From Balanoglossus misakiensis (Eukaryota; Animalia; Hemichordata): a DNA stretch of 64,000 bases. The notes beneath the pieces were generated by a model that was given only the letters and a program-made list of their open reading frames with translations, ran no database searches and had not been told where the DNA came from. The first letter of the stretch is position 1. Each line of letters opens with the position of its first letter. This document shows, one piece after another, positions 557-49,890 of the stretch. The stretch lies in assembly GCA_040954595.2 (NCBI GenBank), contig CM082585.2:7851353-7915352 (forward strand), read 5' to 3'. Both the position numbers and the translations under genes were made by a program.

Positions 557-3500
557 ATGGAACTCAGATTACTCTTGGCTCTGGGAAGTCTTGTACTCCT
601 ACTGACAGGTAAGCTATCAATGAACATCGGAATTTCATTTCTTGGAACATTATCCAGTACATGATCAGGCACACACTGTACCAATTAAAAGTTACTGATT
701 ACCTAGTTAGTTACCAAACAAGCACATTATTTGGGTTAATTTGTCCTACAAAAGTATTTATTTTTCCCAAAATGATTGTTAATTGAATTTCGAGGAAATT
801 TATTAGCTACACCAGCAGGAAAATTAAAACACTATATCCAAATCAACAGTTACTTTTTCGCATACATCTATGTATTGGTCAGAAGCTGATAACACCAATG
901 TCTAAATATATTAATATAAATATCCTACAGCTACTCCAACCAGTACTACAACCACCCAGTCAACAACAGGTAGTTATATGTTTTTTTTTCTATTTTTGCC
1001 GTTTTATTGTTATATGTAATCAGTAACAACGAATAAGCTGGGAAAATATATTAATATATGAATTTATTAATCCTACAGCCGCCACGACAGGTATTACAAC
1101 CCCGCCACCACCGACCTCAGCAAAATCAACAGCAGGTAGTTATACTTTTTATGTTAATTTTGCCATTTTATTGTTATTTGTATTCAGGAACAACGAATAA
1201 GCTGGGAAAATATTTTAATATATGAATTTATTAATTCTACAGCCCCTACGACACTTAAAACAACCCTGCCGCTGACAACCTCCAGAAAAACAACAACAGG
1301 TAATTATACTTTTATTTTATTTTTTGCTATTTTATTGTTATTTGTAATCAGGAACAACGAATAAGCTGGGAAAATATATTAATATATGAATTTATTAATC
1401 CTACAGCCACCACGACAGGTATTACAACCCCGCCACTGACGACCTCTGGAAAAACAACAGCAGGTAGTCATACTTTTTATTTTATTTTTTGCTGTTTTAT
1501 TGTTATTTGTAATCAGAAACTACTAATAACCTGGGAAAAATATATTAATATATGAAGTTATTAATTCTACAGCCACCACGTTAGTTACTACAACCCAGCC
1601 ACGGACAACCTCCGCACAAACAACAGCAGGTAATTATACTTTTTATTTTATTTTTTGCTGTTTTATTGTTATTTGTAATCAGAAACTACTAATAACCTGG
1701 GAAAAATATATCAATATATGATTTTATTAATCCTACAGCCACCACGACAGGTAAAACAACCCTGCCACCAACGACCTCTGGACAAATAACAACAGGTAGT
1801 TATAGGTTTTTTCTATTTTTGCCATTTTATTTTTTATCTGTAATCAGGAACAGCGAATAACCTGGGAAAATATTTTAATATATGAAGCTATTAATCCTAC
1901 AGCCACCACGTTAGTTACTACAACCCAGCCACGGACAACCTCCGCACAAACAACAGCAGGTAATTATACTTTTTATTTTATTTTTTGCTGTTTTATTGTT
2001 ATTTGTAATCAGAAACTACTAATAAGCTGGGAAAATATATTAATATATGAATTTATTAATTCTACAGCCACCACGACAGATATTACAACCCAGCCACCAA
2101 CGACCTCTGGACAAATAACAACAGGTAGTTATAGGTTTTTCTATTCCATATTAGTGTTATTTATAATCAGGATCAGCGAATAACCTGGGAAAATATATTA
2201 ATATATGAATTTATTAATTCTACAGCTGCAGCCACCACGACAGATATTACAACCCAGCCACCAACGACCTCTGGACAAACAACAACAGGTAGTTTTACTG
2301 GTATTTTGCTGTTTTATTTCTATTTGCAATCAGGACCAAATAATGCGCTACTTGATGCAATCGAACAGGGGCAGTCACCTGTCTATAGACGTGTGCAATT
2401 AAAGTAAAGGTTTATTCATGCATGCTTGAATAAACACTTCCAACTTGATTGGGTTATTTTTGTGACAATCATTATCAAAGGCTCAGTCAACATATTTCAT
2501 CAAAGTTTGAGTGCTTTACATTACATTATCCAGATAGCAGGGTGTCATTCCTTTAGCAGCTTTCAGTCTTTGATGACATGAATTTTGACATATGAGCATT
2601 GATAAGGAATCTCACACACAGCAATAAGATGGTTTGTCTGGGTTCCAGCCAGAGCTTTGGGTATTACCCAGGCTGAGAAATTGTTACAGCTGTTGCCATT
2701 TTAAACCTGTGAGTAAAGAACCTTACCGTGTTTGGACAGTATAAAATTCTTTTCCAATGCTACACTTCAAGTTTATGACGTCATCCAATTAAAGTATACA
2801 CATACGGTACCAATAGAGCATGTGGATAGATAATCGACTGGAATCCAGCAAGACCAGATAAGTTGACCGTCCACTGCAAGAAAAAGTCACAAAATAGTAG
2901 GATAGGTGTTAATAGAATATGGAAACAAAATATTACATCATTTCATACCATTGTGAATAGGGCAAACGAGTAATGGTCATCACCACTTTTTTTGTGTGTG
3001 AATCTATTCCATTCCAGCTTGGACCTGCCATGCGTTATCCGATCCCATATCTGGGAGTCTAGACTGTACAAATGGGTTCTACTACAACAGTACATGCACA
3101 TTCAGCTGTGATACAGGCTATGATGGAAATGGTACAGTATCAAGTGTGTGCGAATCGACTCAAAATTGGGATCCACCAATTGATTACACATGTACAGGTG
3201 AGTGATAAAATGTTCGACTGATGGAACTTTCTTATTAAATGTACAGATAATTCAATACCATGAGTTTTTCATTAGTTCACAGCAATTAAATGATATTCAT
3301 TCAAAAAACAATTAGCTGTAAATATCACAAGATATAAAAATACAAAGCACAAACTGACATAATATATCATGCAAGATATTTGCCACTATTGTTTAATAAA
3401 GAGAAATTGCACCTAATTTTACGTATCTAATAATTGCATTTTCAATTTTGAATCTATTCCTCTCCAGCTTGGACATGTCCTGCATTATCAGATCCCACAT

Positions 3501-6500
3501 CTGGTAGTCTAATCTGTTCAAATGAGTTTTACTACACTAGTATCTGCACATTCAGCTGTGATTCAGGCTATGATGGAGGTGGTACAGAATCAAGGATTTG
3601 TGAATCAACTCGCAATTGGGATGCATCAGATAATTTCATGTGTACAGGTGGGTGATTGCAATGTCTACTGATGGAACTTCCTTCTTTGAAATGTCCAGAT
3701 AATTCAATACATTGCAACTGATTAGTTGATGGTAATTAAATAAATAGCAGTATACATTACAAGACACAAAATATAGCATATTAAAAATATAACTGACATA
3801 ATACCGTAAATCAAGAAAATTACGTGACAGGAAATTTTCGCGATATACATGTTACGCGCCGATTAATTTTCGCATTCTCATCATTGCGGTATTTTCCATT
3901 CCAGCTTGGGCATGTCCTGATTTACATTACCCAACATCTGGAAGTTTAAACTGTACAAATGGGTTCCATTACAATAGTAACTGTACATTCAGCTGTGATT
4001 CAGGCTATGATGGAAGTGGTACAGTATCAAGAATATGTGAATTAAATCGTAATTGGGATGCCTTGGATAACTTCACATGTACAGGTGTGTGATAAACCTT
4101 TCCCTGCCTTCTACAGAAGAGAATTAGCGAGCAAAACTACTGTAGAGTAAAATAAACATAAAACATCAATTCATCTGCAGGATATCTTCATGCATGGCAA
4201 CCAACGTTCTTGCGAACAATTACTGTTTTACAGACATCGAGCCACCGTTGTTTCAAAACTGTCCGGATAACATTACAACGACAACAACTGATGAGGAACA
4301 AGGTCTGGCAAACGTTTCCTGGACGGAGCCTACTGTATCTGACAATTCTGGAGAAACGCCTTCTCTTATGAGAACACACCAACCTAATGATGGCTTTTTC
4401 ATTGGAAGTACATTGGTCACTTATACTGCATGGGATGCCGATGGAAACCAAGCTGAATGCACATTTGTTGTCCATGTACAAGGTAAAGTTATTCTTACTA
4501 TGATCCTGTCTTCTTTTTAGAGCCCATTTGTAAACCTTCAGAAGCACATGCGTTTATCAACATTGTATTTTAACATGAGCTAAGGTTCTAATGCTAATCT
4601 GTTTCAGATCTACCTCCACCAACACTGCAATATGTTTGGGCTTCCTCATATCAACGTGGAACTGTCAGACTGCAAGTGCGGTTGAACTATGATTACCATT
4701 ACTACTACGGCTACTATTACGAGTATGAAGTGTCTTACTGGATTGTTCCGGATGCAGATAACAGCATTACGATAAGGGATAACGGAACAGATAGATATGC
4801 TGACACTACCTTATACAACTTGAACCCAAACGAAACATATGAGATGTCAATTGTGATATTTCATTATGGTCGTATCAGTGAGCCCTTCTTGATGAATTTT
4901 ACTGGTAGGTTTCAACAAGTCTCACTGGCTTTCAATACTAACAACTAAATATCATGCTTTCACATGACATATATCCCGTAGTTTTAGGCTTAGATTCTAT
5001 TGGCAAAGAAACACAGGACTAAATTCTTGTTAATTTAAGTACACAGAATGTAAAATAACACTGAATTACGATTGAAACATTCACACAAACTATTGTTTTC
5101 TGCAAATTAACTATTTGGTAATGATGAAAAAAGGAAAGGTTAGTTGGAAGTGAGATTTAACAGCACTATCACTGAATAAGTAGAAGTTGCAATTCTGAGG
5201 AACATTTATCCTGGTTTAGGTGATTGCAAATGTTGAATAGGTTTAGGTAAAAGTTTCTGATATGCTGCCTTTGAATTAATGCAAATTGTGTGCATATTAG
5301 CAGGTTTCAAATGACTTCTTAATTCCATGTCACCTACACATACTAGGCAATGCAATTATAAAATGGATTCTTTCAAAATGTGATGATAATAGCAAAACTT
5401 TTATTCTTGGTACAGATCTTTGCGCAGATGACCCATGCCAGCTGAATGGTATCTGTGAAAGCTTTACTATAAGATGGTATTATGGACACTTTTCCGAATA
5501 TTACAACTGTAACTGTCGACCTGGTTTTGTGGGCCATAACTGCACAGGTGAGAAATCACTGACAAAGGCGTTACCAATAAATCTAAAATTCTGTAATAAA
5601 TGGATTGCTGTCACATTTAGAATATGGGGAATCTAAGGCTAAAAAGTACTGTTGTTTGGTTTTGTACAGGATTCAGTGGCTAGACGGTGTAGTTGGAAGT
5701 GCGGGGTCAACTCCCAGTCCATTCAGTAAATTGCAAATTGAAGCTATTCACAACATTCAATTTTTTTAACAACACAAGTTTTATAAAGTAACAATCCATT
5801 TATGTATGGTTGTTTTACTTATCTGATTTTATCAGCATATCGACATTTCAGGTCAACATCTCTTCATCTGATAATGCGTTTACAACCAGAATTCAGAGAT
5901 AATGGGCAATTTGCTCTGGTGACGTGGGCATTTTTTCTTCTTTTAGTTGAAATTTGTGCCATGAAAATGTGTTGATGAAAGAGATATTGATATTTTTCAG
6001 AACTTTTCATATATGCTGAGTTAATTGATACCACAACAACAACAGTGACAGTAAGATGGAGGCTGACAAGTGAAAGTTATCAATGGGAAATCAAAGAAAT
6101 TATAGCCATCGATTTGATTGACGAGGAAATGGTTGAATTTCGTTCTTTTGAGTACTACTTGCAGCGTGAAACCACATTGGGTCATCTGAGACCAGGAGCA
6201 TCATACGTTATTAAAGTTACCGCATTTGGATGGAACAATTTCAACATCAGCGCCGATGACATTATTGCGAACATAGGCAAGTAACCAGCAAATATAGACA
6301 AAATTAACACAGCAATGTTGGTTTTGTAAATTTATGATGATATAGTTGACTCTTTTGAGCCTGTTCTTGTAGTAAATAACGACGGGTGACAATCGTAGCT
6401 AATTGTTTTTGATCTCAAACCTTCTCCTATAAACAAAAGTTTGAAAGTGTGAAAATACAACAAAGATGTACGCTTTGCCTTTTTCGACTAACCCCCCTCT

Positions 6501-9500
6501 AAAACATGTTTGCTCTTACTCCAAAGTAAAAGTGATTAATCTTATCAGTGTTTTCTGTTAAAGTTATCATTTGTTTGGTAACTGTAGATTTTACTGATAT
6601 GATTAATTGTTAAGTTTACTAGTATGAACTATGACCACAAAATATGATGTTTCTTAATGCTCTTGCAATACTAATTATCAAGACATCAACACTTGTCTAG
6701 GAATGTTGCTGATCATAAATTACACATCAGGCAGATCGAGGTGCCTCTTGGGTCTCATGTTTGTTACTTTCGTCACAGCTCCGGAACCACCAATATGGGC
6801 AGGTATCACCAACTATAACTCAACAAGTGTTTCTCTCTACTGGAATCCCGGATATACAGAATATGATTCGTTTGACGTTGGGTATGTGTGTGAATCTACC
6901 GGACTGATGGCAAACACCACACTGAATGTGACATCTACAGATACCACTTTGGTCGACTTGCTACCGAACAACACGTGTTGGGTTGATATCACTACGTGGA
7001 GTAATGGTCTTAGAAGTGCCAATAAGTACACAGTGATTATAAGAACAGGTAAAAGACATTTTGGTGTTTATTTGATTTTCGTCGCTGTTTTTTCTCTGTG
7101 TATGCGTATCACACTGATATCATGGATGCTTGACAATTTTACCAACAGCTCCAGATTATTGTGCTGATTCACCATGTGGATTTAACAGTAGCAACTGCCA
7201 AAGTGATAACAATGGATACAATTGCTTCTGCCCCTCCATGCCCGACATAGGTAAGGCTTGATCAACTTTACCAATGATCTCTGTTGATCCAAAATATATC
7301 AATTGTTTCTATTTCTTTTAAACATGCAAAGCAGTTAATTATAAAGTAGATTTTGCATTGAATAGTCATCTTTGGAACACAGCGTTTCCTGCCTGCGATT
7401 TGTTGAAGCCATGCAACGATCGTGTTATCGGTTAACAATGACCATGTTAACAATTAGGACAACCATTGCCTGGAAATCATCTGCACATGTGCACACATGA
7501 CGAAATGTGTGTTGATAGCTGCAGCTGACCCCACAATGTGTGGCATCTACTGTTATTCCATGGTCACTCAATATGTACCAGTACCAGTATATACCAAATA
7601 TTCTACCACTTATATCCATTTATGGTTGGGTAGACATTTTCGCTCATGACCATGTTCTGCAAGACCTTCGCCTACATTTGTTAGTGAAACTGTGATTCAA
7701 TAAACCTCTGCATGGGCTGCTTTCAATGATGGCCAAGACCTGTTATAACACAGGTTACCTTTTTACTTTAATACATCTGCCTGTCCTTTCCTTCTGAATT
7801 GTTATCTTGCAATCAATTCTTGCAAACGTCCTGTTCACTAATCTGATGACTAATTTCTAACCTTTACTGTCTAGAGCCGACAACAATTACAACATCTACC
7901 GATCCGACAGAAGGTAAAAAATCAATCAAGTATTGAAAACACCTATTCATTTATTTTGAGTTACATCCATTTAAAGGTTGTTAATATTCATCAAAAGAAG
8001 AGCTTCCAAAATTGTCTTTTTTGTTGCAAATTACTGACATTGAAAGTGTGTTGCCAAGTGCTCTTGAATTATAATAAGTTGTATGTCTTTATTAAATATA
8101 GTACTAATATCATGTTCAACTAATGTAATTACTCTTATGATATATATCTGCAGGTATACCAACAGTGACTTGGGTTTATGCGTCATCACATCAGCGTGGG
8201 ACTGTTGAATTGTACTGGGATTTGGACTATCAGTGTGGTGACTACTGCCAACTTGATGTGTCTTACTGGACTTACCCTGATGAGATTGACACCATCACAG
8301 TCACACAAAATGCAACATATGATTCTGGTTCAGTTAACCTGCAAAACTTGATACCTAACGAAACCTATGTAGTATCATTTGTGGTATTTCGTGGCGGAAG
8401 TGAAAGTGAGCCGTTTGTAATGAATTTCACCGGTAGGTTAAAATTATGAATGCACACACAGGTTGATTTCTGTGTATGCTGATTTTTGGACAGATGTATG
8501 TATTCACATTATATATATATTGTACACATGTATATTCACTTCCACTTTTTTTAAGTTTTGCTTTCATTTCCCCAGTGTGAACATATTAAACTGACCCTGT
8601 CATTTATTGGTACTCAAAATGTAAATTTGGTATACATGTACAAGTATAAATAACAATGCAATTAGTACATTCACTAGTTACTTAATATGATGAAAACATC
8701 TAGGTAATTGTACTAATGTAAACATTAATGTATTCATTGTCAACATTTCCCTTTATTTAACACATTATCTAGGCAGAAATCGTAACAGACTTTTACAGTA
8801 CGAGATAATGCTTTTTGCCAATTTGCACCACTTTCAGATTTGTGATGCTTTACTAAATGACACTGGAAAATTGCAATGCCTAAAACATCAGTGCAATAAC
8901 AAATAAATTGTATACATAGATATGTTATTTTATACATAGCCAAATTAAATCAATAGTTATGCACTGTTACTGGCGATATGTGATGATATTTTCATTCCTT
9001 ATTATTCTCAAACAGATCTTTGTGCTATCAATCAATGCCAAAGTGTGACATGCAACAGCTACACTGACGCAAGCAGATATGGGTATTATGACGAAAGTTA
9101 CTACTGCTACTGTCTACCAGGTTTTTTTGGCCAGAACTGCGATGTTGGTGAGTATTAAACTTGTGCTTTTCTAGCAGTCCTTAATCAATCAACCTAAATG
9201 TGGAGTACATCAAATGGATATTATGGATTGTAGAGTAATATTCACTCATCATTTTCTCCCAATCTGTTTCAGAACTTTTGATCAATGGTGAATTAGTTGA
9301 CACGACAACAACGACATTAACTATCCGATGGCATTTATCAGATGAGAGATATAGAGGGAACATCAAGGATTTTATAGCGATTGACTTGACTGGAGCCGAC
9401 ATGAAGGAATCCCGCTCTTATGAGTACTATATACGCCGTGAAACAACGCTTGGTCGTCTGAGGCCAGGAACATCATACACCGTGACCATTACAGCATTTG

Positions 9501-12500
9501 GATTGAATGATTTCAACATCAGTGATGCAGTCATAGCTAATTTAGGTATCTGTATTCAACTGCTAAATGCTAAAGATATTTGCGCCTTTAGTGCCTTGAG
9601 TATAAATATATTTACATGAGGCACAACAAGCGTTAAGTTACACATGGGTTTCCAAATGTTGTCCCTGTTATTTAGGCACAAGAGAAACAATTTGGCGGGC
9701 TTAGAACTTATTGTACATTGAACTGTTTACGTCACAGCTCCAGAACCACCAACATGGGTTGGTATCAGCCACTACAATTCAACAAGTGTGTCCATCTACT
9801 GGAATCCTGGATACACAGAACATGATTTCTTTCAAGTGACGTATATGTGTGAATCTACAAATATAACACTCAATGCAACGTCTAGTGATGTAACTCTCAA
9901 TGACTTGCCACCCAACACCACTTGTCAGATTGACGTCAGCACTTGGAGTAACGGTTTGCGAAGCACAGCCACGTATACAAAGATGATAACGACAGGTAAA
10001 TTGTTGGTTTCATTTGAAAGAATGAGAATGTAATACCACAAAAGTCAGACAGACAAGTCATGTCATTGTGACACGCAGACTGACAAAGTGCAGGCATTTT
10101 ACTGTGTCCAGTTAGTGATTATCTACACTGGTCAATTATGATTGTTCATTACTTAATATATGGCGAATTTGATTTCCCCTGTCCAGCTCCTGACTTCTGT
10201 GCCAGTTCACCCTGTGGTTTTAACACCAGCAGCAGCTGCAGGAGTGATATCAATGGATTTACGTGCTCATGCCCAGCCATTCCAGGTATGGTTGAATTAT
10301 CTTTTTGGATATAAGAAACTTCACTTCAGGCAATTTGTCATATGGAAAAATTAATGTACTTCAAATAGGCACAGTGGTGCTCGAGCCTCTTCTGCACTGT
10401 AACAATAAAGTACTATTCCCATGTTATCTGTACCAACTCTAGTCTTTACACCAACTGGGACTGAAACATCATCTAAATGGACCACTGAACAAGCTACAAC
10501 ACAACCTGTGACAACACCTGAGGACACCACGCAACCCGAGTCGACAGCAGCCACCACTTGGCCTAACATCACAACATCGTCACCAACAGCAGATCTATCA
10601 ACTACACAATATGTTGCCGAACCAACTACAACATGTAATTATTTCTGTTTATTACAAGTAGGATATTGCTTTTGGGTGGTGGCATGTCATCTTACTTTGA
10701 ATTTAGTATTTATAGACGATCCCCACTTTGAACATATTATAGGTCGAAATTATGCAATATTAATAAATAAAGCACACAAGAAACCAACAGTATTTTTTTT
10801 CAGATCCACGCCTCCCACAAGTGTACCGGGTCAAAGCCTACACATATCAGCGTGGAACTGTTGAATTAAAGATTGAATTGGATTACTGGAACTATGATGG
10901 CTACGACATCGAAATCTCTTACTGGGTGTATCCTTATATGAATGACAGCATTGTAATATCAGAAAATGGCACATACCACTACCATGAAACTACTCTATAC
11001 AACTTGGAATCAACTGAAACATACGTAGTATCGGTTTTGGTATATCATGGTTCTAGTGTAAGAGAGCCGTTTGAAATGAATTACACCGGTAAGTTTCAAT
11101 TTTTATCAGTCTCTGTGTGTATATGTGTGTATATCTATGCAATGTGTTTAATGTGTGTTCATTTCTTTCTTTCTTTGTGGTATACTTAATGATACAATGC
11201 ACAGTAAACAAATTAATGATCATCAACTAAATGCTTCCAACAGTACTTATAATCAATCAAAATTAAATCAATAGGTTTGTAATGCACTGTTACTGGCGAT
11301 ATGTGATGATATTTTCATTCCTTATTTTACTCAACCAGATCTTTGTGCTATCAATCAATGCCAAAGTGTGTACGCATGCAACAGCTACACTGAAGCAAGC
11401 AGCAATGGGTATTATTACGAAAGTTACTCCTGCTACTGTCTACCAGGTTTTTTTGGCCAGAACTGCGATGTTGGTGAGTATTAAACTTGTGCTTTTCTAG
11501 CAGTCCTTAATCAATTAACCTTAATGTGGAGCACATCAAATGGATATTATGGATTGTAGAGTAATATTCACTCGTCATTTTCTCCCAATTTGGTAATGTT
11601 TTCATCATGCTTTCATATTTGGTTTGTGTCACTTTTACAATATTCAACCTCCTATATTTATCAGGATTTTCAGACAACATTGGATATTTCACATTTTACT
11701 AATAATTATGGGATGCAATTAGCAAATACTATTGCTGGGCATTACCTATAAGTACCTTTAAAATTGTAAACAATTTAATAAGTCATTGAGATATGAATCA
11801 TATTCACTCTTATTTGCTTTGGACCTTATTGATTCTTGTCAGGTAATTAACGCCATATAAGTGACATTAAACTGAAATATAAAACCTTACTGATGATTCT
11901 CTATTAAATGAACTTTACTTATAAATGATCTTTTACACTTTGTTTCAGAACTTTTGATCAATGGCGAATTAGTTGACGCGACAACAACGACATTAACTAT
12001 CCGATGGGATTTATCAGATAACAGATATAGAGGGGACATCAAGGATTTTATAGTGATTGACTTGACTGGAGCCGACATGAAGGAATCCCGTTCTTACGAG
12101 TACTATATACACCGTGAAACAACGCTTGGTCATCTGAGGCCAGGAACATCATATGTTGTGAACATTACAGCATTTGGATGGAATGATTTCAACATCAGTG
12201 ATGCAGTCATAGCTAATTTAGGTATCTGTATTCAACTGCTAGAAATAATGCTAAAATATTTGCGCCCTTAAATGTGAAACCAGAGTATAAACATACTTAC
12301 ATGAGGCAGAGCGTTAAGTTACACATGGGTTTCCAAATGTTGTCCCTGTTATTTGGGCACAGGAGAGTGTGCTTAATTTTTCCTTATGCTAGCACTGCCT
12401 CTTATTGTACACTCATGACTGAGGCTGCATGACTGAACTGTTTATTATACATCACAGCTCCAGAACCACCAACATGGGTTGGTATCAGCCACTACAATTC

Positions 12501-21500: not shown

Positions 21501-24500
21501 TAATAGTGGTCATGAACATTGTGTTGCTTGCCAACTCAACTACTTCAGATGAAGACATGCTGATTCAAGATTTGACCACCAACTTAGAAACAAATGGATT
21601 GCTGAACTACACAGTTGATACGATTGAACGCTATGAAGGTAAGATGTGCTTAAAAGGATGGTAAATGAAACATTTTGAGTAGAGAAAGATTAGAAAGAAT
21701 GATCTTAAAACATTGATGAGCTGTGTTATAGAACCACAATTAGGGCAGTAAATCTTCAACATCGACCATTACATCATGACTGCCTGTTATGTAAGGACAA
21801 CAAAACCACATTGCTCTTGTATATAAACCAAACGGTTCCTTTTAGATCACTGCCAGGATGCTCCCTGTTTGAATAATGGAATGTGCGTATCTGAAGAAAC
21901 AGACTATCGCTGCTACTGTAGGGATAACTTCATTGGTAGACACTGTGAAACAGGTAGGAAAATAACACCCTGTCATAAAATATTGTTCATCAACATCAAC
22001 ATTTTAATTTGCCAAACCCAATACACACTGAGAAGTGTCACAGGTTTCTTGAGAGTCCTTCGTATCTAAACGTTTAGCTAAATATTCCGTAAACCCATAC
22101 TTTTTTACACAGCTTTCAATGAGAAGATACATTTATTGAGTGGATACAAGTTTCTAAGTGTAACCGAGGAGGAAGAACTTGAAAACCCTGTATATGGTGT
22201 GGCGTCCTTGGTGACAAACCCAAGTGTTGTTCTGCGTTATGAGATGGTGTCCAGTCGCGACAGTTCATCGTTCAATTTAGATAATATATCGGGAGAACTT
22301 AATGCTACATTTCAAAAGTTTGACCATGAAGAGAAAACTAGGTATGAGGTTGAGGTAGACATCTTCGATTTGGAGGGAGCCACGCGTGTCCTTGTGATAT
22401 TTGACGTCATCAATATCAACGATAACAGCCCCATCTTCACACACACGCCATATATAAATAGTGTAATGGAGTACGCGCCTGTCGGGAGTCTTGTTGCCAT
22501 GGTCACAGCAGTAGATGCCGACGAGGGCGCGGTGTTGACCTACTCACTCTCCGGTTCAAACTCGTACATCAATTCTCTGTTCTACATCAACGACTACGGG
22601 GCAATCACTGTGGAGGGAATCCTGAACAGGCAACGTTTGAGGAACGACAGCCAACTGGAAGACGGTAAACTGCTCGTATTCGCGTCCGTCAGCGACGGCG
22701 AACGAACTGGACAGGCGACGGTCTTCTTGCAAATCGAGCCCCTGCACGTCAGAGACACTGAGGTGGACGAAAGAAGTGATATGGTTGCCATCTACGAGAA
22801 TGCAACAGTTGGAACCACGGTAGCCGACGTCGGCATATCAGTCCCCGAAAATGATGACACCACTTACAAGTACAGAATCATTGGCTTCAAAGATTCAGGC
22901 GACTTTCCGTTTACAGTTAATGAAACAACAGTAAGTTTATCAGTATTTAATTTTCAGACATAACTCATTACAATGGTTAATGGTTTTAACAGGCAAAGTT
23001 TCAGAATCAGAATTAACAACATATGCACGTTATGGTAGAAAAATCTTGAGAGAATCATGCTATTGTCTGGCTAAAAAAAATGTATTAATCTCCTATTTTC
23101 TTAAATTTACATTTCATAATGGAAAACAAATAACAAAGGGAAATTGTTTATTAAATGTTTCTCTGTTGCCACTCTTCAGGGAGAAATAACAACAAGACTT
23201 CTGCTAGATAGAGAGAAAGAAAGCTCTTACATTTTTTCTGTCATTGCAAGAGAAAGTGAATGCCTATCTGAAGTTGAGGTTTGTATTGTTCATATTTTAC
23301 AAGGATATTTACACAATGTAGTACTGTGGATATGAACTTTATTGGATATTCTTCATGTTGACTCTCGGAACATTAGCGACTTCCTACCAGTCTGATGTAT
23401 AGAGACCTCTATACTGGGAATCAGGGGTGAAAGATAAAAAAAGTTCACTCTCATATTGTTTGTTTCTTGTTTTCATAGATATACCTTGAAATCGAAATAG
23501 GAGACGTGAATGACGAAAGTCCTATATTCAGTGAAACATCATACAGCGCCACCTTGCGGGAGGATGCTGTTGAGGAGGAGCTTATCATTGTGAGTGTAAA
23601 ATTATGATTTTATGGAACTGCTGTAAGCTAAATGCATTACAGAGATCAGAACATGGTAGCTGTTCATCTTTGCTACTAAATATTTGCGATCATACCCATC
23701 CATATTCTAAACTTTATTATAGGTCAAATATACAATTTGTATACATATATGGACTTCCAGCAATAATGACCAGTATGTGATGTCAGGTGTTTTGAAAATA
23801 GTTAGCAATCCTGCCCCACAGGTGGCACCTGCCATCGGTCACACACTAAAGACAAACGTCTCCGATACCATCCTTACATCCGCATTTATTTGGCTCACAG
23901 ATTCCAGCCATCCTGGCAACAGATGAGGATGTTGGACTGAATGCTGATATCAGATACTACTTAGCAGGACCTGGAAGTGATCTCTTTGACATCGACCCGA
24001 AGAGCGGCAAGGTTCGATGTAAGGCCAATTCAAACTTCGATTATGAAACAGTTGTAGAGTATCGCTTGGCCGTAATTGCCAAGGATAAGGATGGCAGCGA
24101 TGACAGCAACATGGCAAGTGTGCCTTTGGTTGTCAGGATCACAGATGCCAATGACAACAGCCCCGTTTTCACGACACAGCACTGGAACTTGACTGTAAGC
24201 GAGGATTCCCCAGTCAGGACCTCTCTGGCATCAATACAAGCTACAGACGCTGATGAGGGTCCTAACGGTGATATTTTGTATTATATCCGGGACGGAGGCG
24301 AGGGGAAGTTCAGAATGGAGCTGACAACAGGCGTGCTTTCCACAAGTTCTGAACTTGATAGGGAGACGCACGATACCTATGTCTTGGACGTGATCGCGAG
24401 AGACCAGGGGTTTCCAGCAAGAGAGACTCTCATACAGGTGCATGTGACAGTTACAGATGTCAATGACAACCAGCCAATCTTTGGCCAGCAGTTTTACACT

Positions 24501-27500
24501 GGACACACTCCAGAAGGAAATACTGGAAATCCATCAATCCTGACTGTTCATGCTGTTGATCCCGACTTGAATGAGAATGGCGCGATATCATACTCCTTGG
24601 AGGACCCTTCAATCTTCAGCATCGATCATGCCACTGGGGTTCTATCCTCCGCGTCTCCACTGAATCGAGAGGATATTCCGTCGTTTGATCTCGTTATCAT
24701 TGCAACCGATGGTGGAGTGCCCGCGAAGTCAACTTCTGTTCAAGCGAGAGTTGTAGTTGAAGATGTCAATGACAATGAGCCTAAATTCTCCTCGGACAGC
24801 TATGCCACAACAATGCTTATGTCACCTGACGGAATCAGGCCTGGCACGTTAGTGACACTGATAACAGCCACAGACCTCGACATCGGCAGTAATGCTGAAA
24901 TCGCATTCTCGGTGATCGATGAGGACCATAACAGGACGTTTGAAATTGCTCCTGATGGTGTTGTGAAAGTAAAAGAAACTTTCAGCAGTAATGGTCCAAT
25001 CACTTTTAATATATCCGCCAAAGATGGCGGCTCACCTCAGCTGGAGGACACAGCAGTGCTGACCATAACATTCAAACAACCCTCGGAAGAATTTGAATTC
25101 AATGAAACTGCATATGATTTCAGTATAACGGAGAATGAACATGGCCAAGTCGTGGGAACTGTCACAGCCTTCAGCAGAAGAAATTTAGATATCATTTTCG
25201 ATCTGCCATTTGATATACCCGGCATCACAATAGACAGTCAGATGGTAAGTTACTCTATACAAAATAACTCAAGGCTGGTAATAACGAGCCAATAATACAA
25301 AAGGTGGGTGAACACTATCAGTGATTAAAATATACAAAATGACCAGCCGTCTTCACCAATTACATTAACACACATTTAAGTTTCATATTCATGGTCAACA
25401 AATTTCTGTAAATCAGCAGCATGCAATTTCGTCTCTGAATCTCTGCTTTACAGGGTGATATCAACATAACTCGTCCATTTGACAGAGAAGAACTGTCTGA
25501 AATATCATTCAACGTGCTTGCTCATGGCTATGATGAAGATCGCGGATTTGCCTTTGCCACAGTGAGTTGTTAACTAGTGCAAAAAATATATGTTAAACAT
25601 CAATAACGGTATGTCTGACACAATGTAATTAAACTTCTGCTGAACAGAGCAAATAAGTGCCTATTATTCTGATTTACAAATTTCGCATATTGTTAATATT
25701 TCCATGCACTCAGCAGAAACAGTTTTTTGATTATCTAAATTCTTATTCAGGTAAAAATAAGTATAGAAGATGCGAATGATGAAACTCCATACTTTGTTTA
25801 CCCTGGAGAACCTGTCTTATGGAGGGAATTGGTGGAAAATACTCTCAACACATCATTCTTACAGTTGCATGTGGAGGATGACGATGACTTCGGCCCTAAT
25901 TCTGAAATTGAATATGCTATCGATGATGGAAATGACGGTGAGTAATAGTAATGCATGTCACATGTAATTAACTATTCTCCCCTTTCCAAGGAAAATTACT
26001 GAATGTACACAAGCTCATGATCTGTTTTCAATTATATACATATTTTCCCATCTCTTACAGATGGTATATTTGATATAAATAGATTGACTGGTCTTATCGA
26101 CGTGGTTACAGAAGCAGACAGGGAGTATATTGAGTCGTACACTTTGATTGTTATGGTAACTAACAGCAACAAAATTGTTGATTTATGTGTAACTTTTGGT
26201 TCCCTATATTAAGGTGATGCTTTATGTTACTGTACCTTTCCAATGGTTTTAAACCCTTATTTCAAACCAGAGACAATCACCACAAACCACATCTAGATTC
26301 AACACTATGTTATGATTGAAAACATCACACATGTAGTTAGCATTCACCTGGTATATTAAATGTTCATCAGCAATTTCTGTTGTCTAGGCAAGAGATCAAG
26401 GTGATCCAGTGTTGTCGACGAGTGTTACCATAATCGTCGATATATTGGACGAAAATGACAATGAACCAAATATAACAGTGGGTGCAACCACGGAAAGTGT
26501 TGGAGAAAACATACCAAATGGAACTGAGGTAAGAAAGGTGGAAACATAATACAAATACTGAATGAAATCCATACAGGTACACATCAGTGCTTTTTTAATG
26601 AAGAACCTACATTAAGGTATATATATCCCTTCTACGTTTAAGGGAATGTCTATGCTTTGAACCACCTTGACCATATTTAACCATACATTGGCATGTAAAG
26701 TGCACCTTCTAGTACCATCTACACCAGAACACATGGGAACCATAATGCATTCTTTTGTTATAGGTAGCGTTTGTGGTAGCCACTGATATTGATGCTGGCA
26801 ACAATGCTGAAATCATCTTCCAACTGGAAGATGCTTCAAACGGCAACTTTTACATTGATGGCAAGTATATTATATCTAATTTAAATTATGGAAGTTATAT
26901 GGGCACAACTCGAATCAATAATTACTCTGCTATTTATTCTATTGAAAATGACACAGCTGCGTTTTAATGTAATCAGATTTTTTATTCACTTGCAACTAGT
27001 ATCCAGCCTCTTTTGTTGACAATTGTATGAATCAAACTTAATCCACCATTTTACCTTTTCCAGAACTTTCTGGTTCGATACAGACTGCCAAATTACTTGA
27101 CCGAGAAACAGTGGACACACACACCATAGAAGTGGTGGCTGTTGACAAAGGCGACCCCAGGAAAACCTCCTCACCTTTACAGATTACATTCATCATAGAC
27201 GACTACAATGACAACCCTCCAGAGTTTGATAATGCCACCTATTATACACAACTCGGAAAGGATTCCCCACCCGGTACTGAGGTGTTGACTGTGTCTGCTA
27301 CAGATAAGGATGCTGGAATCAATGCCATGTTCTCATATGATATTACAGGTATGTCCAATGGTGTCACAACTGCGTATTGAAGTACATTTCGATGTCACAT
27401 TTCATATTAAACACGGTCAACTCAAGTGTTTTCTCAGTTAAAGAGAAACATGTTGGTTACATACCCCCGGTACTGGTACAGACAGACTGGTTAAATTAAA

Positions 27501-30500
27501 CAACCATTAATAAGTCATCACATTTTCAGTTTTTATCAAACTATATGTTATTGGTAATGACATCACAATTATTTTGAATTTATTTGTGTTTCAAGGTAGA
27601 GGAAACTGTAGTCAAAAGCACTTTTCAATTAACTCAACAACGGGAGTAATCTTGTCCACTGCTAATCTCTACGACCAACAGTCTGGAGTCTGTGTGATAT
27701 CAGTCAGATGTATGGATATGGGAACGTATCCGTTAAGTTCCACCACTGAAGTGAGCCATCATATATCACTTTACATTTAAGCAATAAAACACCCCCAGCC
27801 ATGGTATACCACCAGTTTTGACCAGTTCACGACATATATGCACTCGCTATCGCTCGTGCGTATATGGAGTTGAACTGGTCAAAATCAAGTGGTATAACAT
27901 GGCTGGGGGTGTTTTATCACTATTATATTATGCAAGTATATTGAAAATTTGCATAAAACATTTTAAAAAGGCATTTTCTTTTACTATGATATATGACTGT
28001 GGTATATGACCAATATATCACAGTCACGTGTCGTGTCTCGACCAATAAAATAGCGTGATTTACACCATCAATATACTGGTATAATATAATGTAAAATATA
28101 TAACATTTAGAAAGAACTATTTTCACAAAATAGTATTTACCTATAGATGCAGATATTCCATGGGATATACCAGTCCATCCTCTGCACGAATTAATCAATT
28201 TCTGCATTGTAGTGGCAATATCATGTTCCAAGTCCATTCCCTGAATGTCCTTTTAATGTAAACCTGCAGGTCAAAGTCAACATAGAAGAAGTCAATTTCC
28301 CACCAGCATTTTTGTCGGATTCGTACAAAGCTACAGTTCTTGAAAATGCTGCCATGGGCACTTTGCTGAGTACAGAGCCTTACTCAATAAAAGCGATAGA
28401 CAATGACACGGACCACAACGGTGAAGTGTTTTACAAAGTCAGTGACAATGGTAAGCACACTTATATTGTACATATGTTTAATTTACTTCCCCTCACGCCT
28501 ATAAGTCTGTTTTGGGGCGATCACAGTCCCTCGGGGAAATAAACGTATGCTGTTACCCCCATGGCCACTCAATCTGTATAGTTACCCCCATGGCCACTCA
28601 ATCTGTATATATTATTATCCATCGACTAAATTTTGTACTTATTGAGAAAAATAAGTAATTGTTAAAAATAATACTGTTCTTGCAGACTTGTTTTCCATCA
28701 ATCGACTGACGGGTGAAATTAGAGTCGAACAAACTCTTGACCGAGAAACACTGGATTCTCTGGAATTGATCATCACAGCTCACGACGACACACCTGATCC
28801 AAAGTCTGCGACCACCACGCTTAACATCACAATTGCCGATGTCAATGACAACGGACCAAAACTACCAAGACAACCGTCCGTCACAATCCTCCAGGCAAGC
28901 AACACTCTCTGACTTTGTCTGTTTCACCAACAATGCAAATACTAAGTACTGTTAGCTCAACTTTCTTTGTCTAAACCTTAAGGCCTGTCTAATCTTTAAA
29001 CCCGTTTATACCATAAACACTTTTCCCAATCCCTTTGACATAGAACCACATGTTTAAAGAACCTATATAAACTGGACACCTGTGTAAACTGAATATTTTA
29101 TTCAGTCCCTTTGGTGGTCGGTTTAGACAGGTTATACAGCATCAGTACATTTAAGCTGTCGTGCTCTGGTGATGTTGCAATTGCATTGATCATTCTTTCG
29201 AATGTTCTTGTTAACAATGGCTAAAACTTCACTTACACTTTGCATTTGGTAGGATGGTAAACCGGGAGGTGTAGTGGCAAACATGAAAGCATCAGATAAA
29301 GATATTGGAAGAAATGCTGACTGTTTCTATAACATCGCTGAGCTTCGGTTTGACGGTCAAAGTACTGATACCCCATCGGACTATTTAAACATTAACCCAA
29401 CAGAAGGAATTATCACAACTAAGGAGAAGTTATACAATTTAAATCTGACACAAACTATACAAATTGAGGTAAGAAACATTATTGGGACTAATGATTTATG
29501 TTTTATGGTGTGTAATATACTTAATTTCTGCATAAGATTTACACAAATCATCGAAACCATTCGCAAATGTGATACTCATGTCTGTTACCATAAGCATGAC
29601 CAAATTATCATATCATGTTTCTATTGGATTTGAATGTTCATTTACACTTTTGGCTTTCGCATTGTAGTTACAGCAAAAGTAATTCATTATACTCAATTTT
29701 CTATTTGTTTCACTTGCTACTTTTAGCTCATCGTATGGGCACGGAACATAGCACCCATTGTGCTCGGACCATCTGGAACCGCCGATGTGAACCTAGCAGT
29801 ATCATGGTTGACTATTATCTTTAAATATGAATACACACCCAAGTGCAGAGAAGGTAAGACTAATTGACTCCATTGGACACACCATAATCGCATACTTTAT
29901 ATATGAAAATGCATCCTCATAAGAAGACTTAAGGAAGAGTTTTGATTATACATTCATGTGTTTAGAGTACTTAATTCGTCAAACTATATCTCAGAATAAA
30001 GTCTTTTTATGATGTAGTATTAGCAAAGAAAACGGCAAAGAAATAATTCTACTATATTCGTCTTAACCTAGAATGTTCACGAACAGAATGAAAATGCTGA
30101 AAAGTGTAACAATATTCTTTTACAATAGATGAATATTTTGTGAGTATCCCCGAAGACACACCAAGGGGACACATATTGAATGTGACATTTGAGCCAGAGA
30201 AGAATAGTACCAGACCGTTGCCACAACTACAGTATGCTCTCAGAGCCGAAACAGTAAGAATTTCTCTCCAGAATTATACATGTGAAATCAAATACATGTG
30301 CGTGTTTCGAAACGAATAGTTTCAAAGCTTTCCCAACAAAAAGTACCAGATTAACAACTTGAAAAAAGATCATTGAAATGTAAGAAACATGTAAGAAATT
30401 CCTAGCCGTACTTACTGTCTTAAATCTTTCCCTTGAAACTCTCTTCTTCAATTTGTCCAGGATGCATTTACCATTGATGGTGACACTGGAGAAATATCTG

Positions 30501-32392
30501 TTGACCGACTTCTGGATGTAGCTATTTATAACTTGACAATCATTGTAAGAACTCTGGACACAGAAAACGGAGAAGGGTAAAAAAAATTATTTTATGCTCT
30601 ATTCAACTCTATATCATATCAAACCTCATTAATCAACGTGATACAGCTAGCCATACAAGTAAATCAGACGACAGCAAAACATTGTTTGATGTTAATAAAA
30701 TCATCTCAAAGTTGGTTTAAGACAGAATATATATAATTGTATTGACTCACAGGGATAAATGTCAAAATTGTAGGCATTATCTTGAGTTTATATGTTGCCA
30801 TGTATATTAAGGAAGTGAGATTGAAAGGTTTAACCTTCCTCTTGTGAAACATACACAATCCTTATACAAACACATGGAAATTACATTGGATGATGAGCCA
30901 TATCTCATTTGCTACAGGTCCTGTATTCTTTTGGTTGATGTTAATCAAGTAACAACGACAGAAACTGTGCCATCGACAGCAAAACCAGGCAAGTCATCAT
31001 TGTAAAACTTGTGTTAAAAACATGTTTGTCGAGAGAAACATGTGACTTTTATATTTGGGGAATAATTATGACATGGTTATTATTTACGTCAGCATTGGAA
31101 CAGAGTTAACATGTACTATAAGTACATATAAGGCAACTGAACTGGCATCCCTGCCTCAAATAATTAATCGGTTGGTTGATTGATTTATTGATTGATACAT
31201 TCATTCATTCATTGATTGATGATGAGAATGTGAGTCTGTTGGGGGTGGGTGGATGAGTGAATGAGTATCATTCTCACAAAGATTCTTCATATGATTCCTA
31301 TTTATCAATGCATGCATTTTGTTTACTTTGTTTCTCCCAGTTAAGCCCTATGACGAAGAATTGTTTATCTACTTAATCGTCGTAGCAATGCTCGCGGCGA
31401 TATTTCTAATTCTGTTCATCACCACCAGTGTCATCCTGTATTTGCGTACTCGAACAAGGTGAGCTTTTTGAAGTCATTGGTTTTTGCGTTCACACAATAG
31501 CAAGAGTAAATATGCTGGACCAGACGAGACAAAACCAATTACTGTGAATTCTGAACAAGATATATGAATATGCTGAAATAACTAACATACTATTCCATTA
31601 CTCTGTCCCAACAGCAGTACCAGATATAAACCAGCGAATAAAACATCCGAGCCATCAATTTCAGTAGATTCACATGCACAAATGGTAAGGTTTATCCGAG
31701 AGTTGCACTTTAATAAGAAACTGCTTTATTGATGGTTTTGGTAATTTATCGCGGTACGATATATTCTTTTAAAGCATACATTCGGAAGTCAAAGTACCAG
31801 CCCACCACTTTGTTATAAATGCTGTATAACCCGGTACAGTTAAAAGAATTAAGGGTACATATCAAGACCACATTATAAAAAGAAGGATTTCAAAACTTTG
31901 ACCACATTTACAGTTTAACTGTAGTTGTTCCAACCTTACATAAATTGTTAGCTCTCAAAAGTTGTTTTCACTCTCTTTCATTCAGTACATCCCTAGAGGG
32001 ACAAAATGTTATGTAAGCCCTAATGCCTAATGTGTATTTTTCCCCAGATGCCTGAACGAAGAGGCCAACCCAACTGGATGTTGGTACGGTCTTTGCCCGA
32101 GGAACCCGACAGTGTGAAAACCTTCAAAGATGGTCAAGATGAAGAAAGAACAGCGGACAGGTACACGCACATGATGCAAGACTTCTCGGTTACTCGGCAC
32201 CAACCAACTGAAGACATCCACAGAGAATCTGGCCTTTATACTCCAATGGGACAGAATCTGAATCGCGATTACGACTACGACGAACCCAAAGATTTCATTG
32301 GTGCTTACCCAGGAACTGAGCGCCCGCCGATACCGGACGTAGACTACGACGAAGACGAGCTATCTTTCCCAGACTACCTGGTTCCAACATAA
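557..32392 (+). CDS. Giant mucin/Sushi/HYR/FN3/EGF/SEA + cadherin-repeat type I membrane protein, about 72 coding exons, about 4414 aa
   Basis: ATG 557 starts a signal-peptide exon (MELRLLLALGSLVLLLT, 557-608). Consecutive AG/GT(GC)-bounded exons join in frame to the stop at 32390-32392, and the summed exon length of 13245 nt is divisible by 3. Domains were recognised from Cys/Trp patterns and cadherin DRE, DxD and DxNDNxP motifs. AATAAA at 32472. Confidence 0.85.
931..2288 (+). repeat. Tandem exon+intron array (about 164 bp unit) encoding a Thr/Pro-rich mucin segment
   Basis: A 39-nt exon 931-969 is followed by eight 57-nt phase-1 exons at 1079, 1243, 1407, 1573, 1739, 1903, 2068 and 2232. 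Each is flanked by ctacag| and |gta, with near-identical introns. Confidence 0.9.
3018..4084 (+). CDS. Three Sushi/CCP domain exons (part of giant gene)
   Basis: 180-nt exons 3018-3197, 3468-3647 and 3905-4084, e.g. WTCHALSDPISGSLDCTNGFYYNSTCTFSCDTGY...CESTQNWDPPIDYTC. Confidence 0.88.
4234..4482 (+). CDS. HYR domain exon (part of giant gene)
   Basis: DIEPPLFQNCPDNI...VSWTEPTVSDNSG...FFIGSTLVTYTAWDADGNQAECTFVVHV matches the HYR pattern. Confidence 0.9.
4608..16641 (+). repeat. Four tandem six-exon modules FN3a-EGF-FN3b-FN3c-EGF(5 Cys)-Thr linker (part of giant gene)
   Basis: Modules start at 4608, 8154, 10804 and 13514. Homologous exons include FN3b at 6001, 9273, 11949, 14661 and FN3c at 6779, 9738, 12458, 15438. 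All are phase 1. Confidence 0.88.
16815..20716 (+). CDS. FN3-FN3-EGF-3x calcium-binding EGF-FN3-FN3-EGF-EGF exons (part of giant gene)
   Basis: Exons at 16815, 17306, 17775, 18046, 18612, 19143, 19781, 20280 and 20603. DVNEC/DIDEC/DINEC...CxNxxGxYxC cbEGF signatures are present. Confidence 0.85.
20896..21638 (+). CDS. SEA domain (3 exons) with FKPG^SIIV motif (part of giant gene)
   Basis: Exons 20896-21008, 21181-21239 and 21490-21638 give ...ANFTEDLRDRDSARYRQLEADIVKQITSVLFNATAFQKVEIVEFKPGSIIVVMNIVL... Confidence 0.8.
22113..30988 (+). CDS. About 14 extracellular cadherin repeats (part of giant gene)
   Basis: Repeated xEx, AxDxDxGxN, LDRE and DxNDNxP motifs across 18 exons, including the large exons 22113-22930 and 23901-25244. 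Confidence 0.92.
27784..27917. mobile_element. Palindromic non-autonomous element in a cadherin-region intron
   Basis: ataaaacacccccagccatg-g-tataccac...ttttgaccagttca pairs with tgaactggtcaaaa...gtggtata-a-catggctgggggtgttttat around a central cactcgctatcgctcgtg. Confidence 0.7.
28552..28609. repeat. 29-bp direct tandem duplication (intronic)
   Basis: gttacccccatggccactcaatctgtata occurs twice in tandem. Confidence 0.85.
31341..32392 (+). CDS. Transmembrane helix and cytoplasmic tail (part of giant gene)
   Basis: Exon 31341-31458 encodes LFIYLIVVAMLAAIFLILFITTSVILYL followed by basic RTR. Exons 31615-31684 and 32048-32392 encode a tail of about 140 aa. Confidence 0.85.
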
Positions 32393-33503
32393 TCATGAGG
32401 AATCTCCACAGTCTCAGGATAACTATATGACATTTCTGCCAACAGTCGTTTCTGCAAAAAACGCAACAGTGAATAAAGTGTCAATAAACTATCATGGCAG
32501 ACTTTGAACTCAAACTTTTGGCGATGAGCTACGTCATTGAGTGTGCTATAAATCTTTTTGCTGCACTATTATGGTTTGAATATTCCATGTTGAAAATTTC
32601 AAGAAAATGACAATATTGCATCAGTGTTTTTTTTTAATTCTCCACGTAAGGCTATGGAATATGGTAACCATGCACTACATCTGTGTAGTCCCCTACCTTA
32701 ATAATCTTGTCAAGTGTTATGCTCTGAATGTAACACTTAAATTTCTATAGTCATGATACTCGGAATGTGGCCAACACAAAATTGCAGTCATCTGTGCATG
32801 TGTACATACATATGCTATAAAAATACAAATTTAAAAAAAATTATGATTATATAGAAACAGACTGAGTCAGATGGCACAGGCCGATTGGGCCCATAATCTC
32901 CTACTAGCATACACAAACTAGATTGATTGATGATGCATGTTATAGTGAGGTATTTAAAGGGCCTATAATGACAATTGAAACTGTTTCTTGGAAGCCAGAA
33001 AAAATTGGTAACATCTGTGTACTTACATTTCTTGTCATTTTCATGATTTTCCCTTATATTTCACAACAGTTGGAGTTTGTTGTTGCTGTTGTTGTTTACA
33101 CTGTAACATTCCCTTGCACATATTTAACTGTATTATCCAAGATGATTGTCTCATGTTAGGCTTTGAATAAACTCCCAACAGACACTGCAGACCAAATCCT
33201 TGAAAAAGAGAGATCATTCATTGTCAATTATCTCCTCATTTGCTTATTTAATAAACTTTTCTAACAAAATTAGTGCTATATTTACTGCACTGATATTGGT
33301 GAAATGTGTTACAAATATCAATCTGACCAAGATCTGGCTGTGTTATGAAACATTTAGTCATGTCAATTAATGGTTAATTTGTATATTTAACTAAGTTGTT
33401 TAGAGTTGAGGGCAATAATCCTCCTTCTCCGCCCCCCCCCCCGAAATCAAATGGTTCTTCCCTTATCCCCCCCCCCCGATAAATAGGCAGCAGGGTCGTA
33501 CAC

Positions 33504-35113: not shown

Positions 35114-35265
35114 ATATCAGGCAAGAAAAGGCACATGACACCTCGTGCATGATTTCATCAGTCACCAAAAAATATAAACAAGTCTATTTTATATACAAAT
35201 CTGAAAAAAAATCCTTACATTCTACAATATTGACATATCGAGTGGGGATGCTACAGGTGACGCCA

Positions 35266-46471: not shown

Positions 46472-47675
46472 CTTTTTTTCTAGTTTCTATATACAAGAAA
46501 GCAAACAGACCAGTAATGATTTATGAATGAATCATTATATCTTTGATTATTGTATTCTGGACTGCAAGGTGTGTGTTTGCTTCAGAAGTTGATGAACAAG
46601 AATCTTATCTCTTTATATTTCACGGGGGACAAAACCAAAATCCCAAACTAATTAAGTTTTTATCTGACATTGAACTTTTGGTATCACCCCTATCTCTAAG
46701 ATGATCTTAGAGAGGGTTATGGTTAGGTTTAAAACAGTCAGCACCAGAGTTATGTGAACCAGTGGGATAAAATTAAATCACAAGGTTGTGCCATTATGCT
46801 AGCAAGAAAGGAAAGTGTCTCTGTTGGAGAAGGTAAGTGTTCCTTATTTAGCTTGTACACTATGCGGGCCTAGTCAAGCTGCACTGTGCATATGGGTCTA
46901 CCCACTATATTATAATCTATAGGCACCTCACTATCTCCGTGATCGCATCATAATCTCCTGCAGTGGTTGGTGTTACAGATTGCTTTTATTAATTTGACAC
47001 TGCTTCAACAGGTTATACTATCTGTCAATTGGGCAGCCAGTTGCAGATAGGACAAGTATTGACCCAAATTAAACTGATAAATGCTTATAGCGGATTTTTT
47101 CACACTGGGTGTAAAACTTTGACCATTAATGACCCTAATAAATACGGACAATAATCACAGAATCCTGATGTCCTTTTGTCATATATTTTATCGACGTTTC
47201 ATTAAACGGTGGCAAACCGGGTCAATCACTGCACAGATTTGCTGAAATCGATAATCAATATCCGATCTCTCGTGCAAGAAGTGTCTTTCTGAATTGAATT
47301 GAATAGTATAACTGTTCATGCACTTTAGTTTGAGTGCCGCCTTTTGTTTCACTGCAAGTGATCAATAAGTAGAGAGACGCGAATGCATAGAAACGGTGTA
47401 AACAACTTCACACTACCATGACTACACGATTACGAAACTCACCTACAGTGATTTGACAAATGACGGTCTGTTGAAAATCAGTTATTCCTCTCAGAAATGA
47501 TCTTCATGGTTGAAGATGTCATGCTGAATGTCCTGATAGCTTCAAATAGTCTTCGTCGGCCGGCTGCGGCGACTACATCACGTTAAAGTTAACACATCTT
47601 CGATGTACTTCTTGGTCAACTGGGGAATCCCAGTGGCAGCCATTTTGAATGTTTAGGTATGTTGATAAGTATGCA

Positions 47676-48502: not shown

Positions 48503-49890
<1,388 letters not shown>

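Follow-up and report, generated by a model that had tools for sequence, protein, structure and literature searches.

A giant gene of the acorn worm Balanoglossus misakiensis is predicted to encode a surface protein in which a large modular head stands on a stalk of 14 cadherin repeats. The gene lies in a 64,000-nucleotide stretch of intron-rich animal DNA (GenBank assembly GCA_040954595.2, contig CM082585.2, positions 7,851,353 to 7,915,352 of the forward strand), hereafter the window; coordinates count from its first letter. The predicted protein comprises, in order, a signal peptide; a Thr-rich mucin segment; 3 Sushi, 1 HYR, 16 FN3 and 15 EGF-like domains; a SEA domain; 14 cadherin repeats (EC1 to EC14); a transmembrane (TM) helix; and a Tyr-rich tail. 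A preliminary description of the window had noted this architecture, which is confirmed here at the level of sequence. The protein belongs to an apparently undescribed deuterostome cadherin family.

A constant stalk and differing heads

The stalk identifies the relatives. With the largest cadherin exon as query, three proteins stood out at 49-56% identity among the 120 matches listed, the others falling at 29-36%; two further searches added six relatives. These nine hemichordate proteins, seven from Ptychodera flava (P0033, P0042, P0121, P0122, P0125, P0129, and P0133) and two from Glandiceps talaboti (P0082 and P0130), bear the database name "protocadherin Fat 4-like" in eight cases and "uncharacterized" in one. 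All have the same 14-repeat stalk, in register, at 42-58% identity to that of the window. A tree of 13 rows places four Ptychodera paralogues as the sister group of the window protein (100/100) and contains at least two further hemichordate subfamilies. Five Ptychodera members come from contigs of identical length, and two carry consecutive accessions.

Two amphioxus proteins, P0240 and P0266 (one cluster), also have exactly 14 repeats in the register of the window stalk. The register score of P0240 was reached by none of 200,000 permutations. The amphioxus z is 6.4; of the 250 proteins compared, the remaining 248 stay at or below 3.8 (2,744 sequence windows). The amphioxus branch is long, and the amphioxus model may lack its start. 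As far as these sequences go, the family spans acorn worms and amphioxus: its members share 14 collinear repeats, the same three degenerate linkers, and a TM helix straight after the last repeat.

Among the best 150 of 2,923 hits, mostly long arrays, none was recognisable as a family member from echinoderms or Saccoglossus, which does not imply absence. Likewise, none of 410 candidates was a relative of 3,358-5,000 aa, although that search was insensitive: P0130 (3,886 aa) surfaced later. Thirty-five loci from a metagenome scan, with identities of 28-37%, were taken as generic cadherins, and the ESM Atlas gave generic cadherin and EGF clusters only.

The preliminary description had imagined a variable recognition head presented by the cadherins; a constant stalk under differing heads is now seen across the relatives. 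P0130, a complete model, has a signal peptide, mucin, MAM, SRCR, CUB, EGF, 11 Sushi, FN3/EGF blocks, SEA, EGF, 14 repeats, and a TM helix. In P0121, EGF/FN3 blocks are followed by SEA, EGF, and the stalk; this protein aligns with the last part of the window head at 60% across 414 aa. The P0082 head consists of mucin and calcium-binding EGFs, with no SEA detected. P0133 is a complete-looking form with a signal peptide, a single EGF before EC1, 14 repeats, and a TM helix. (A motif near the start of P0082 looked fucolectin-like, but Pfam gave no match there, and this reading was dropped.)

The deuterostome cadherin toolkit thereby gains a multi-gene family hidden in databases as "Fat 4-like". The preliminary description knew of no named family with this domain order, and none was met in searches of the openly accessible literature. 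A 2023 survey that treats ten ambulacrarian cadherins lists none under this architecture; in its available text no echinoderm cadherin, CDH88C and UECDH included, is described with this order (PMC10734073).

Gene model and domain order

Exon boundaries were set by hand, from the ATG at 557 to the TAA at 32392. The model has 72 exons (557-32392, + strand) and a coding sequence of 13,251 nt, a single open frame of 4,416 aa whose only stop is the terminal one. All 71 acceptors are AG; 66 donors are GT and five are GC; introns measure 100-729 nt. The alternative frames hold 236 and 378 stops, a weak control because the boundaries were picked to keep the frame. GC donors (exons 17, 43, 60, 64, and 69; 5 of 71, or 7%) usually make up about 1% in animals, and some here may stem from boundary choice. 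From the sequence, we infer the splicing of the following elements:

557..608, +: exon 1, carrying the initiation codon and the signal peptide
931..2288, +: exons 2-10, nine Thr/Pro-rich mucin exons of 39-63 nt each
3018..4084, +: exons 11-13, three Sushi domains (Pfam E 5e-8 to 3e-7)
4234..4482, +: exon 14, HYR (Pfam E 7e-23)
4608..16641, +: exons 15-38, cassette FN3a-EGFa-FN3b-FN3c-EGFb (5 Cys)-short mucin, four copies
9265..14159, +: young tandem duplication within the cassette array
16815..20716, +: exons 39-47, two FN3, four EGF (three of calcium-binding type), two FN3, two EGF
20896..21638, +: exons 48-50, SEA domain
21846..21953, +: exon 51, EGF separating SEA and EC1 (Pfam E 1e-7)
22113..30988, +: exons 52-69, 14 cadherin repeats, aa 2745-4226
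31341..31458, +: exon 70, single TM helix
31615..32392, +: exons 71-72, 149-aa cytoplasmic tail, stop at 32392
32472..32488, +: two AATAAA signals downstream of the stop (starts 32472 and 32483)

An AG acceptor just 5' of exon 1 suggests a 5' untranslated exon farther upstream. The one strong TM segment lies at aa 4248.

Pfam, run on single exons, recognised all three Sushi domains and the HYR; FN3 in 13 of 16 exons (E<=0.1); an EGF-clan family in 13 of the 14 EGF exons, which hold 15 domains; and Cadherin in all six cadherin exons scanned. The remaining three FN3 exons are paralogues of matching exons or match a profile built from the model's own FN3. SEA is weak on its first exon alone (E 0.012) and clear in relatives (E 1e-7 to 4e-13). 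Profiles built from the model's own domains, which are circular, return 3 Sushi, 1 HYR, 16 FN3, 15 EGF, 1 SEA, and 14 cadherin domains.

An exon-shuffled head

All 47 head introns, that is, all those before the SEA domain, are in phase 1, whereas the 20 introns from stalk to tail are mixed (12/6/2). Uniform phase-1 introns are a signature of exon shuffling, and the contrast with the stalk makes this head a clean natural case of it. The mucin exons 2-10 form a tandem exon-plus-intron repeat of ~165 bp and encode 167 aa, 63% of them Ser, Thr, or Pro. Exons 15-38 are a six-exon cassette repeated four times. The youngest pair (9265-11468 and 11941-14159) has 87.6% nucleotide identity, introns included; by this measure, the head is still growing by cassette duplication.

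Four of the 15 EGF-like modules (7149-7250, 10187-10285, 12909-13007, and 15941-16045, + strand) have five cysteines: the sixth is absent, and the next exon has no cysteine. The free cysteine could cross-link heads; alternatively, a micro-exon may have been missed.

A probably jointed stalk

The calcium motif DxND(N/E/H) is kept in nine of the 13 linkers and altered in one. It is missing from linkers EC2-3, EC7-8, and EC13-14 in all members whose sequence extends over them, and because of this family-wide lack the stalk is probably jointed. The earlier picture of the cadherins as a Ca2+-rigidified spacer thus survives in part: the stalk is constant and most linkers are intact, but three of 13 have no motif and the whole is probably not one rigid rod. 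The protein sits in the cadherin superfamily as an atypical member, with 14 tandem repeats, nine of 13 linkers canonical, and a cadherin fold in the model of P0130, where EC1-3 fold as ordinary cadherin repeats. By rule-of-thumb domain lengths, the stalk would measure ~63 nm and the head up to 190 nm; ~1,540 aa separate the SEA domain from the TM helix.

SEA domain and cytoplasmic tail

One feature overlooked by the preliminary description is a self-cleavage motif of the MUC1/MUC17 type, G|S[IV][IV]V, in the SEA domain. In the window protein the motif, FKPG|SIIVV, straddles the exon 49/50 junction, with a predicted cut at G2661-S2662; F[KR]PG|S[IV][IV]V occurs in all five SEA-bearing members (window, P0033, P0121, P0125, and P0130). 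G|S[V/I]VV is common to MUC1, 3, 12, 16, and 17, and the MUC17 SEA has an EGF-like domain on both sides (PMC13643018). The MUC1 SEA cuts itself during folding, its chains remain bound, and the domain unfolds under force (PMC13643018, PMC10556640); dissociation of a cleaved SEA requires force (PMC10556640).

In an AlphaFold model of the SEA-EGF-EC1-3 stretch of P0130, the G-S pair lies in a turn between two SEA strands (mean predicted local distance difference test score, pLDDT, 79.9; predicted template modelling score, pTM, 0.40; domain orientations unsure). Compared with PDB sequences, the SEA of one relative weakly matched a single entry, ADGRF1 (E 0.28), and a fold search returned cadherins only, which says nothing on the SEA fold. 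Since the SEA keeps the autoproteolysis motif, the head probably forms a chain of its own that can be released. EC1 had earlier been described as buried behind ~2,700 aa. This would then hold only until shedding, and in P0133 one EGF precedes EC1.

The 149-aa tail contains nine Tyr, RSLPEEP, two YxxP, and one PxxDY. Among the nine hemichordate tails, PxxDY occurs in four, [RK]xLP in five, and YxxP in six, counts that kinship inflates. Presumably, [RK]xLP and YxxP are SH3/SH2 sites. The last tail exon matched no Pfam family, catenin-binding families included. The SH3 domain of Eps8, a protein of microvilli, favours PxxDY (PMC9407544). Separately, the P0033 tail contains a duplicated block, and that of amphioxus P0240 has 21 tyrosines within repeated short motifs.

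Proposed function and alternatives

The reading that best fits these features, with chances we judge evenly balanced, is that the protein works like a transmembrane mucin standing on a cadherin stilt with joints; its head would be cut by its own SEA and released by force, and its tail would be linked to actin at the apical side. By analogy with MUC1, the SEA would cleave itself at G2661-S2662 during folding, and the head would stay non-covalently bound. Calcium would stiffen the nine intact linkers while three serve as joints, holding the head ~60 nm out. On a mucociliary epithelium, the glycosylated, Tyr-rich head would bind mucus, particles, or microbes until shear released it, much as in gut mucins, and left a stub of half-SEA, EGF, and 14 repeats. 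The tail would dock SH3/SH2 adaptors (Eps8/Nck-like) and anchor the protein to the apical actin. An apical location is itself a prediction, as are autoproteolysis and O-glycosylation.

The acorn worm and amphioxus range fits mucociliary feeding, which hemichordates and amphioxus have in common along with expanded glycoprotein clusters (PMC4729200; see also PMC13554239 for the feeding mode); neither paper uses the word "cadherin" in its main text. On this reading, SEA mucins and long cadherins, two known apical-surface devices, would be united in one chain, with a bearing on how the surface coat was built in mucociliary epithelia of the deuterostome ancestor.

Several observations weigh against the stilted-mucin reading. 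SEA is not universal in the family, none being detected in P0082, in P0133, or in the model from amphioxus. MUC16 is uncut at the analogous site, so the GS motif is no proof of cleavage (PMC4456727). The mucin segments, ~290 aa plus two short linkers, make up about a tenth of the 2,740-aa head, far below MUC17. PxxDY is missing from five of nine hemichordate and both amphioxus tails, and the window tail does not end in a class I PDZ motif. Finally, the identity of the repeats is kept more strongly than a passive spacer would need.

Alternatively, the protein could be a recognition receptor (for innate immunity, allorecognition, or gamete binding) with a diversified head, the stalk and SEA being mere display and release devices. 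This proposal, which is compatible with the stilted-mucin reading, we consider unlikely. The head modules of the family (SRCR, MAM, CUB, Sushi, and HYR) would suit it, as would the tandem Ptychodera paralogues and the variable, Tyr/Trp-rich loops of FN3a and EGFa. It could also draw on two FN3a copies in the young duplication (10804-11088 and 13514-13798, + strand), in which 15 of the first 45 codons differ, all changing the residue, beside an intron that is 98.8% identical. However, the excess reaches p 0.02 when set against pooled neutral sites, before correction for six tests, and p 0.22 within the exon; as identity drops to 88% in the following intron, its cause may be a conversion boundary. 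Fast change in FN3a is thus a hint that does not survive correction. Older pairs have ratios of nonsynonymous to synonymous change (dN/dS) of 0.08-0.5, and the genes number about ten, not hundreds.

A second alternative, which strikes us as rather doubtful, makes the stalk an adhesion unit and the head its removable cap: paralogues would bind in trans with their EC1-4 overlapping side-on, the mode of protocadherins and of Fat4-Dachsous, once shedding had unmasked them. P0133 is nearly headless and yet complete-looking; linker pattern and repeat identity are kept from acorn worms to amphioxus; at least three subfamilies would permit heterophilic pairs; and EC1-3 are modelled with an ordinary cadherin fold. 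Yet EC1 has no N-terminal Trp, and an EGF precedes it in most members. The EC2-3 linker has no calcium motif, unlike protocadherins, in which EC1-4 is straight, and the tail, as noted, matches no catenin-binding family.

A broader synthesis, offered tentatively and with more doubt than conviction, would have an undescribed cadherin family, inherited from the deuterostome ancestor, mount exon-shuffled heads on a jointed 14-repeat stalk, with the SEA as the fuse of a force-gated, two-state receptor. With the head on, it would sample mucus and microbes through antibody-like Tyr-rich loops; with the head off, the stub would be unmasked for adhesion or signalling.

One gene or two

Both the stilted-mucin reading and its alternatives take head and stalk as products of one gene. 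The preliminary description had joined a mucin/Sushi/HYR/FN3/EGF/SEA head to about 14 cadherins and a TM helix in one frame, and the 72-exon model and Pfam bear this out. It had likewise proposed a single gene, which agrees with the canonical, in-phase junctions at 21638/21846 and 21953/22113 and with the continuity of SEA-EGF-EC1 in relatives.

The introns flanking exon 51 measure 207 and 159 nt. Both are free of AATAAA and ATTAAA, and the second, which precedes EC1, contains no ATG. Across the 71 introns scanned, no cryptic signal-peptide-like exon passed the filter, and neither a stop-bearing head exon nor a second signal peptide was found in the model. The SEA-EGF-cadherin join is also supported by gene models of other species: the peptide is unbroken in P0033, P0121, and P0130, from two other genera, and the head end matches P0121 as above.

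Against this stand an acceptor of intron 50 that scores low (2.8 versus a median of 8.6); twenty AATAAA in the other introns, which would make short secreted isoforms possible; a splicing pattern read from the DNA alone; relatives that are themselves gene models, several of them N-terminally incomplete; and the precedent of echinoderm CDH23, most models of which Chess et al. judged to be wrong fusions (PMC10734073). Nonetheless, two neighbouring genes, one for a secreted mucin/FN3/EGF protein and one for a cadherin, merged only on paper, would be a very improbable origin for this model.

Comparison with known systems

One close parallel is with the transmembrane mucins. MUC3, MUC12, and MUC17 (and MUC1) share the N-terminal mucin, EGF-flanked SEA, G|S[V/I]VV, and single TM helix (PMC13643018). 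Here, by contrast, 14 cadherins separate the SEA-EGF core from the membrane, so the SEA is not TM-adjacent; the head is mostly folded FN3, EGF, and Sushi domains with short mucin; and no class I PDZ end is present.

Among cadherins, Fat4 and Dachsous have long arrays with ~30% identity, and Dachsous cadherins also run up to the TM helix. However, Fat4 has 34 repeats followed by EGF and LamG, and Dachsous has 27; the window protein has 14 repeats, no LamG, a head before EC1, and a tail without the Dachsous/Fat motif of the sequences compared. Register against Fat4-like groups gave best z values of 2.7-2.9. Against the Dachsous C-terminal half it gave 3.3-3.6 for single proteins and 2.9-3.4 averaged, with a background maximum of 3.8 (2,744 sequence windows). 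No register rose above background: the Dachsous values are a weak hint at most, and the stalk was traced to neither Fat4 nor Dachsous.

Type III cadherins have 14-17 repeats (PMC10734073). Unlike classical and type III cadherins, the window protein has no recognisable catenin-binding tail, and neither it nor its relatives have LamG or EGF after the repeats. By these features it is neither a Fat, a Dachsous, nor a classical cadherin. CDHR5, PCDH15, vertebrate CDH23, and type III cadherins also combine cadherins with mucin, SEA-like, or EGF parts, but there such parts adjoin the membrane, whereas here they precede EC1.

The inverted order is not unique: non-cadherin heads precede cadherins in Nematostella and Hydra proteins and in echinoderm CDH23. 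In five echinoderm CDH23 sequences, EGF modules (and, by eye, LDLa-like ones) lie before EC1 (PMC10734073 supplement, first 400 letters of each), on a different stalk in proteins of ~3,800 aa. In the same source, the CDH23 proteins of Saccoglossus, amphioxus, and mouse begin at EC1. The authors dismissed longer echinoderm heads as mis-fusions of two loci (PMC10734073), but the N-terminal parts so removed may be real heads. A motif search of the same echinoderm cadherin set, again within the first 400 letters of each sequence, gave no matches.

Nematostella XP_048580321 (P0124) has a signal peptide, a head of C1q/TNF-like repeats, a cadherin array, and a TM helix; its head is unrelated, its array has ~52 repeats, and its register z (3.8) is within background. 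Hydra XP_047135447 (P0182) likewise joins a signal peptide and an unrelated LamG3 plus TSP1 head to a long array (28+ repeats) and a TM helix. A head before cadherins therefore recurs independently.

The non-bilaterian hedglings and lefftyrins also place an N-terminal non-cadherin module on a cadherin stalk, with Hedge/VWA or LamNT-EGF-furin heads and SH2 or phosphatase tails. FRAS1/ECM3, NG2/CSPG4, and bacterial RTX adhesins raise a binding head on a calcium-stiffened stalk of cadherin-like or Ig repeats; these are CSPG or bacterial Ig repeats, not true cadherins, and have no SEA release site. Because all its parts are known and its layout has precedents, the protein apparently represents an undescribed family but not a new principle. 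(Hedglings and lefftyrins are documented as families in PMC6030884, PMC5097364, and PMC12549020.)

Neighbouring genes

Elsewhere in the window, two small minus-strand membrane-protein genes were placed by eye at ~48500-49900 and 51400-53900; the open reading frames scanned there gave no Pfam match. An intronless, GC-rich open reading frame at 39162-40226 (+ strand) encodes an EamA-family transporter (Pfam E 8e-16), possibly a retrocopy; it seems, by eye, to sit in an intron of a multi-exon minus-strand gene at ~35200-47600. An armadillo-repeat gene, which we take to be importin-alpha-like, occupies 54480-59000 (+ strand).

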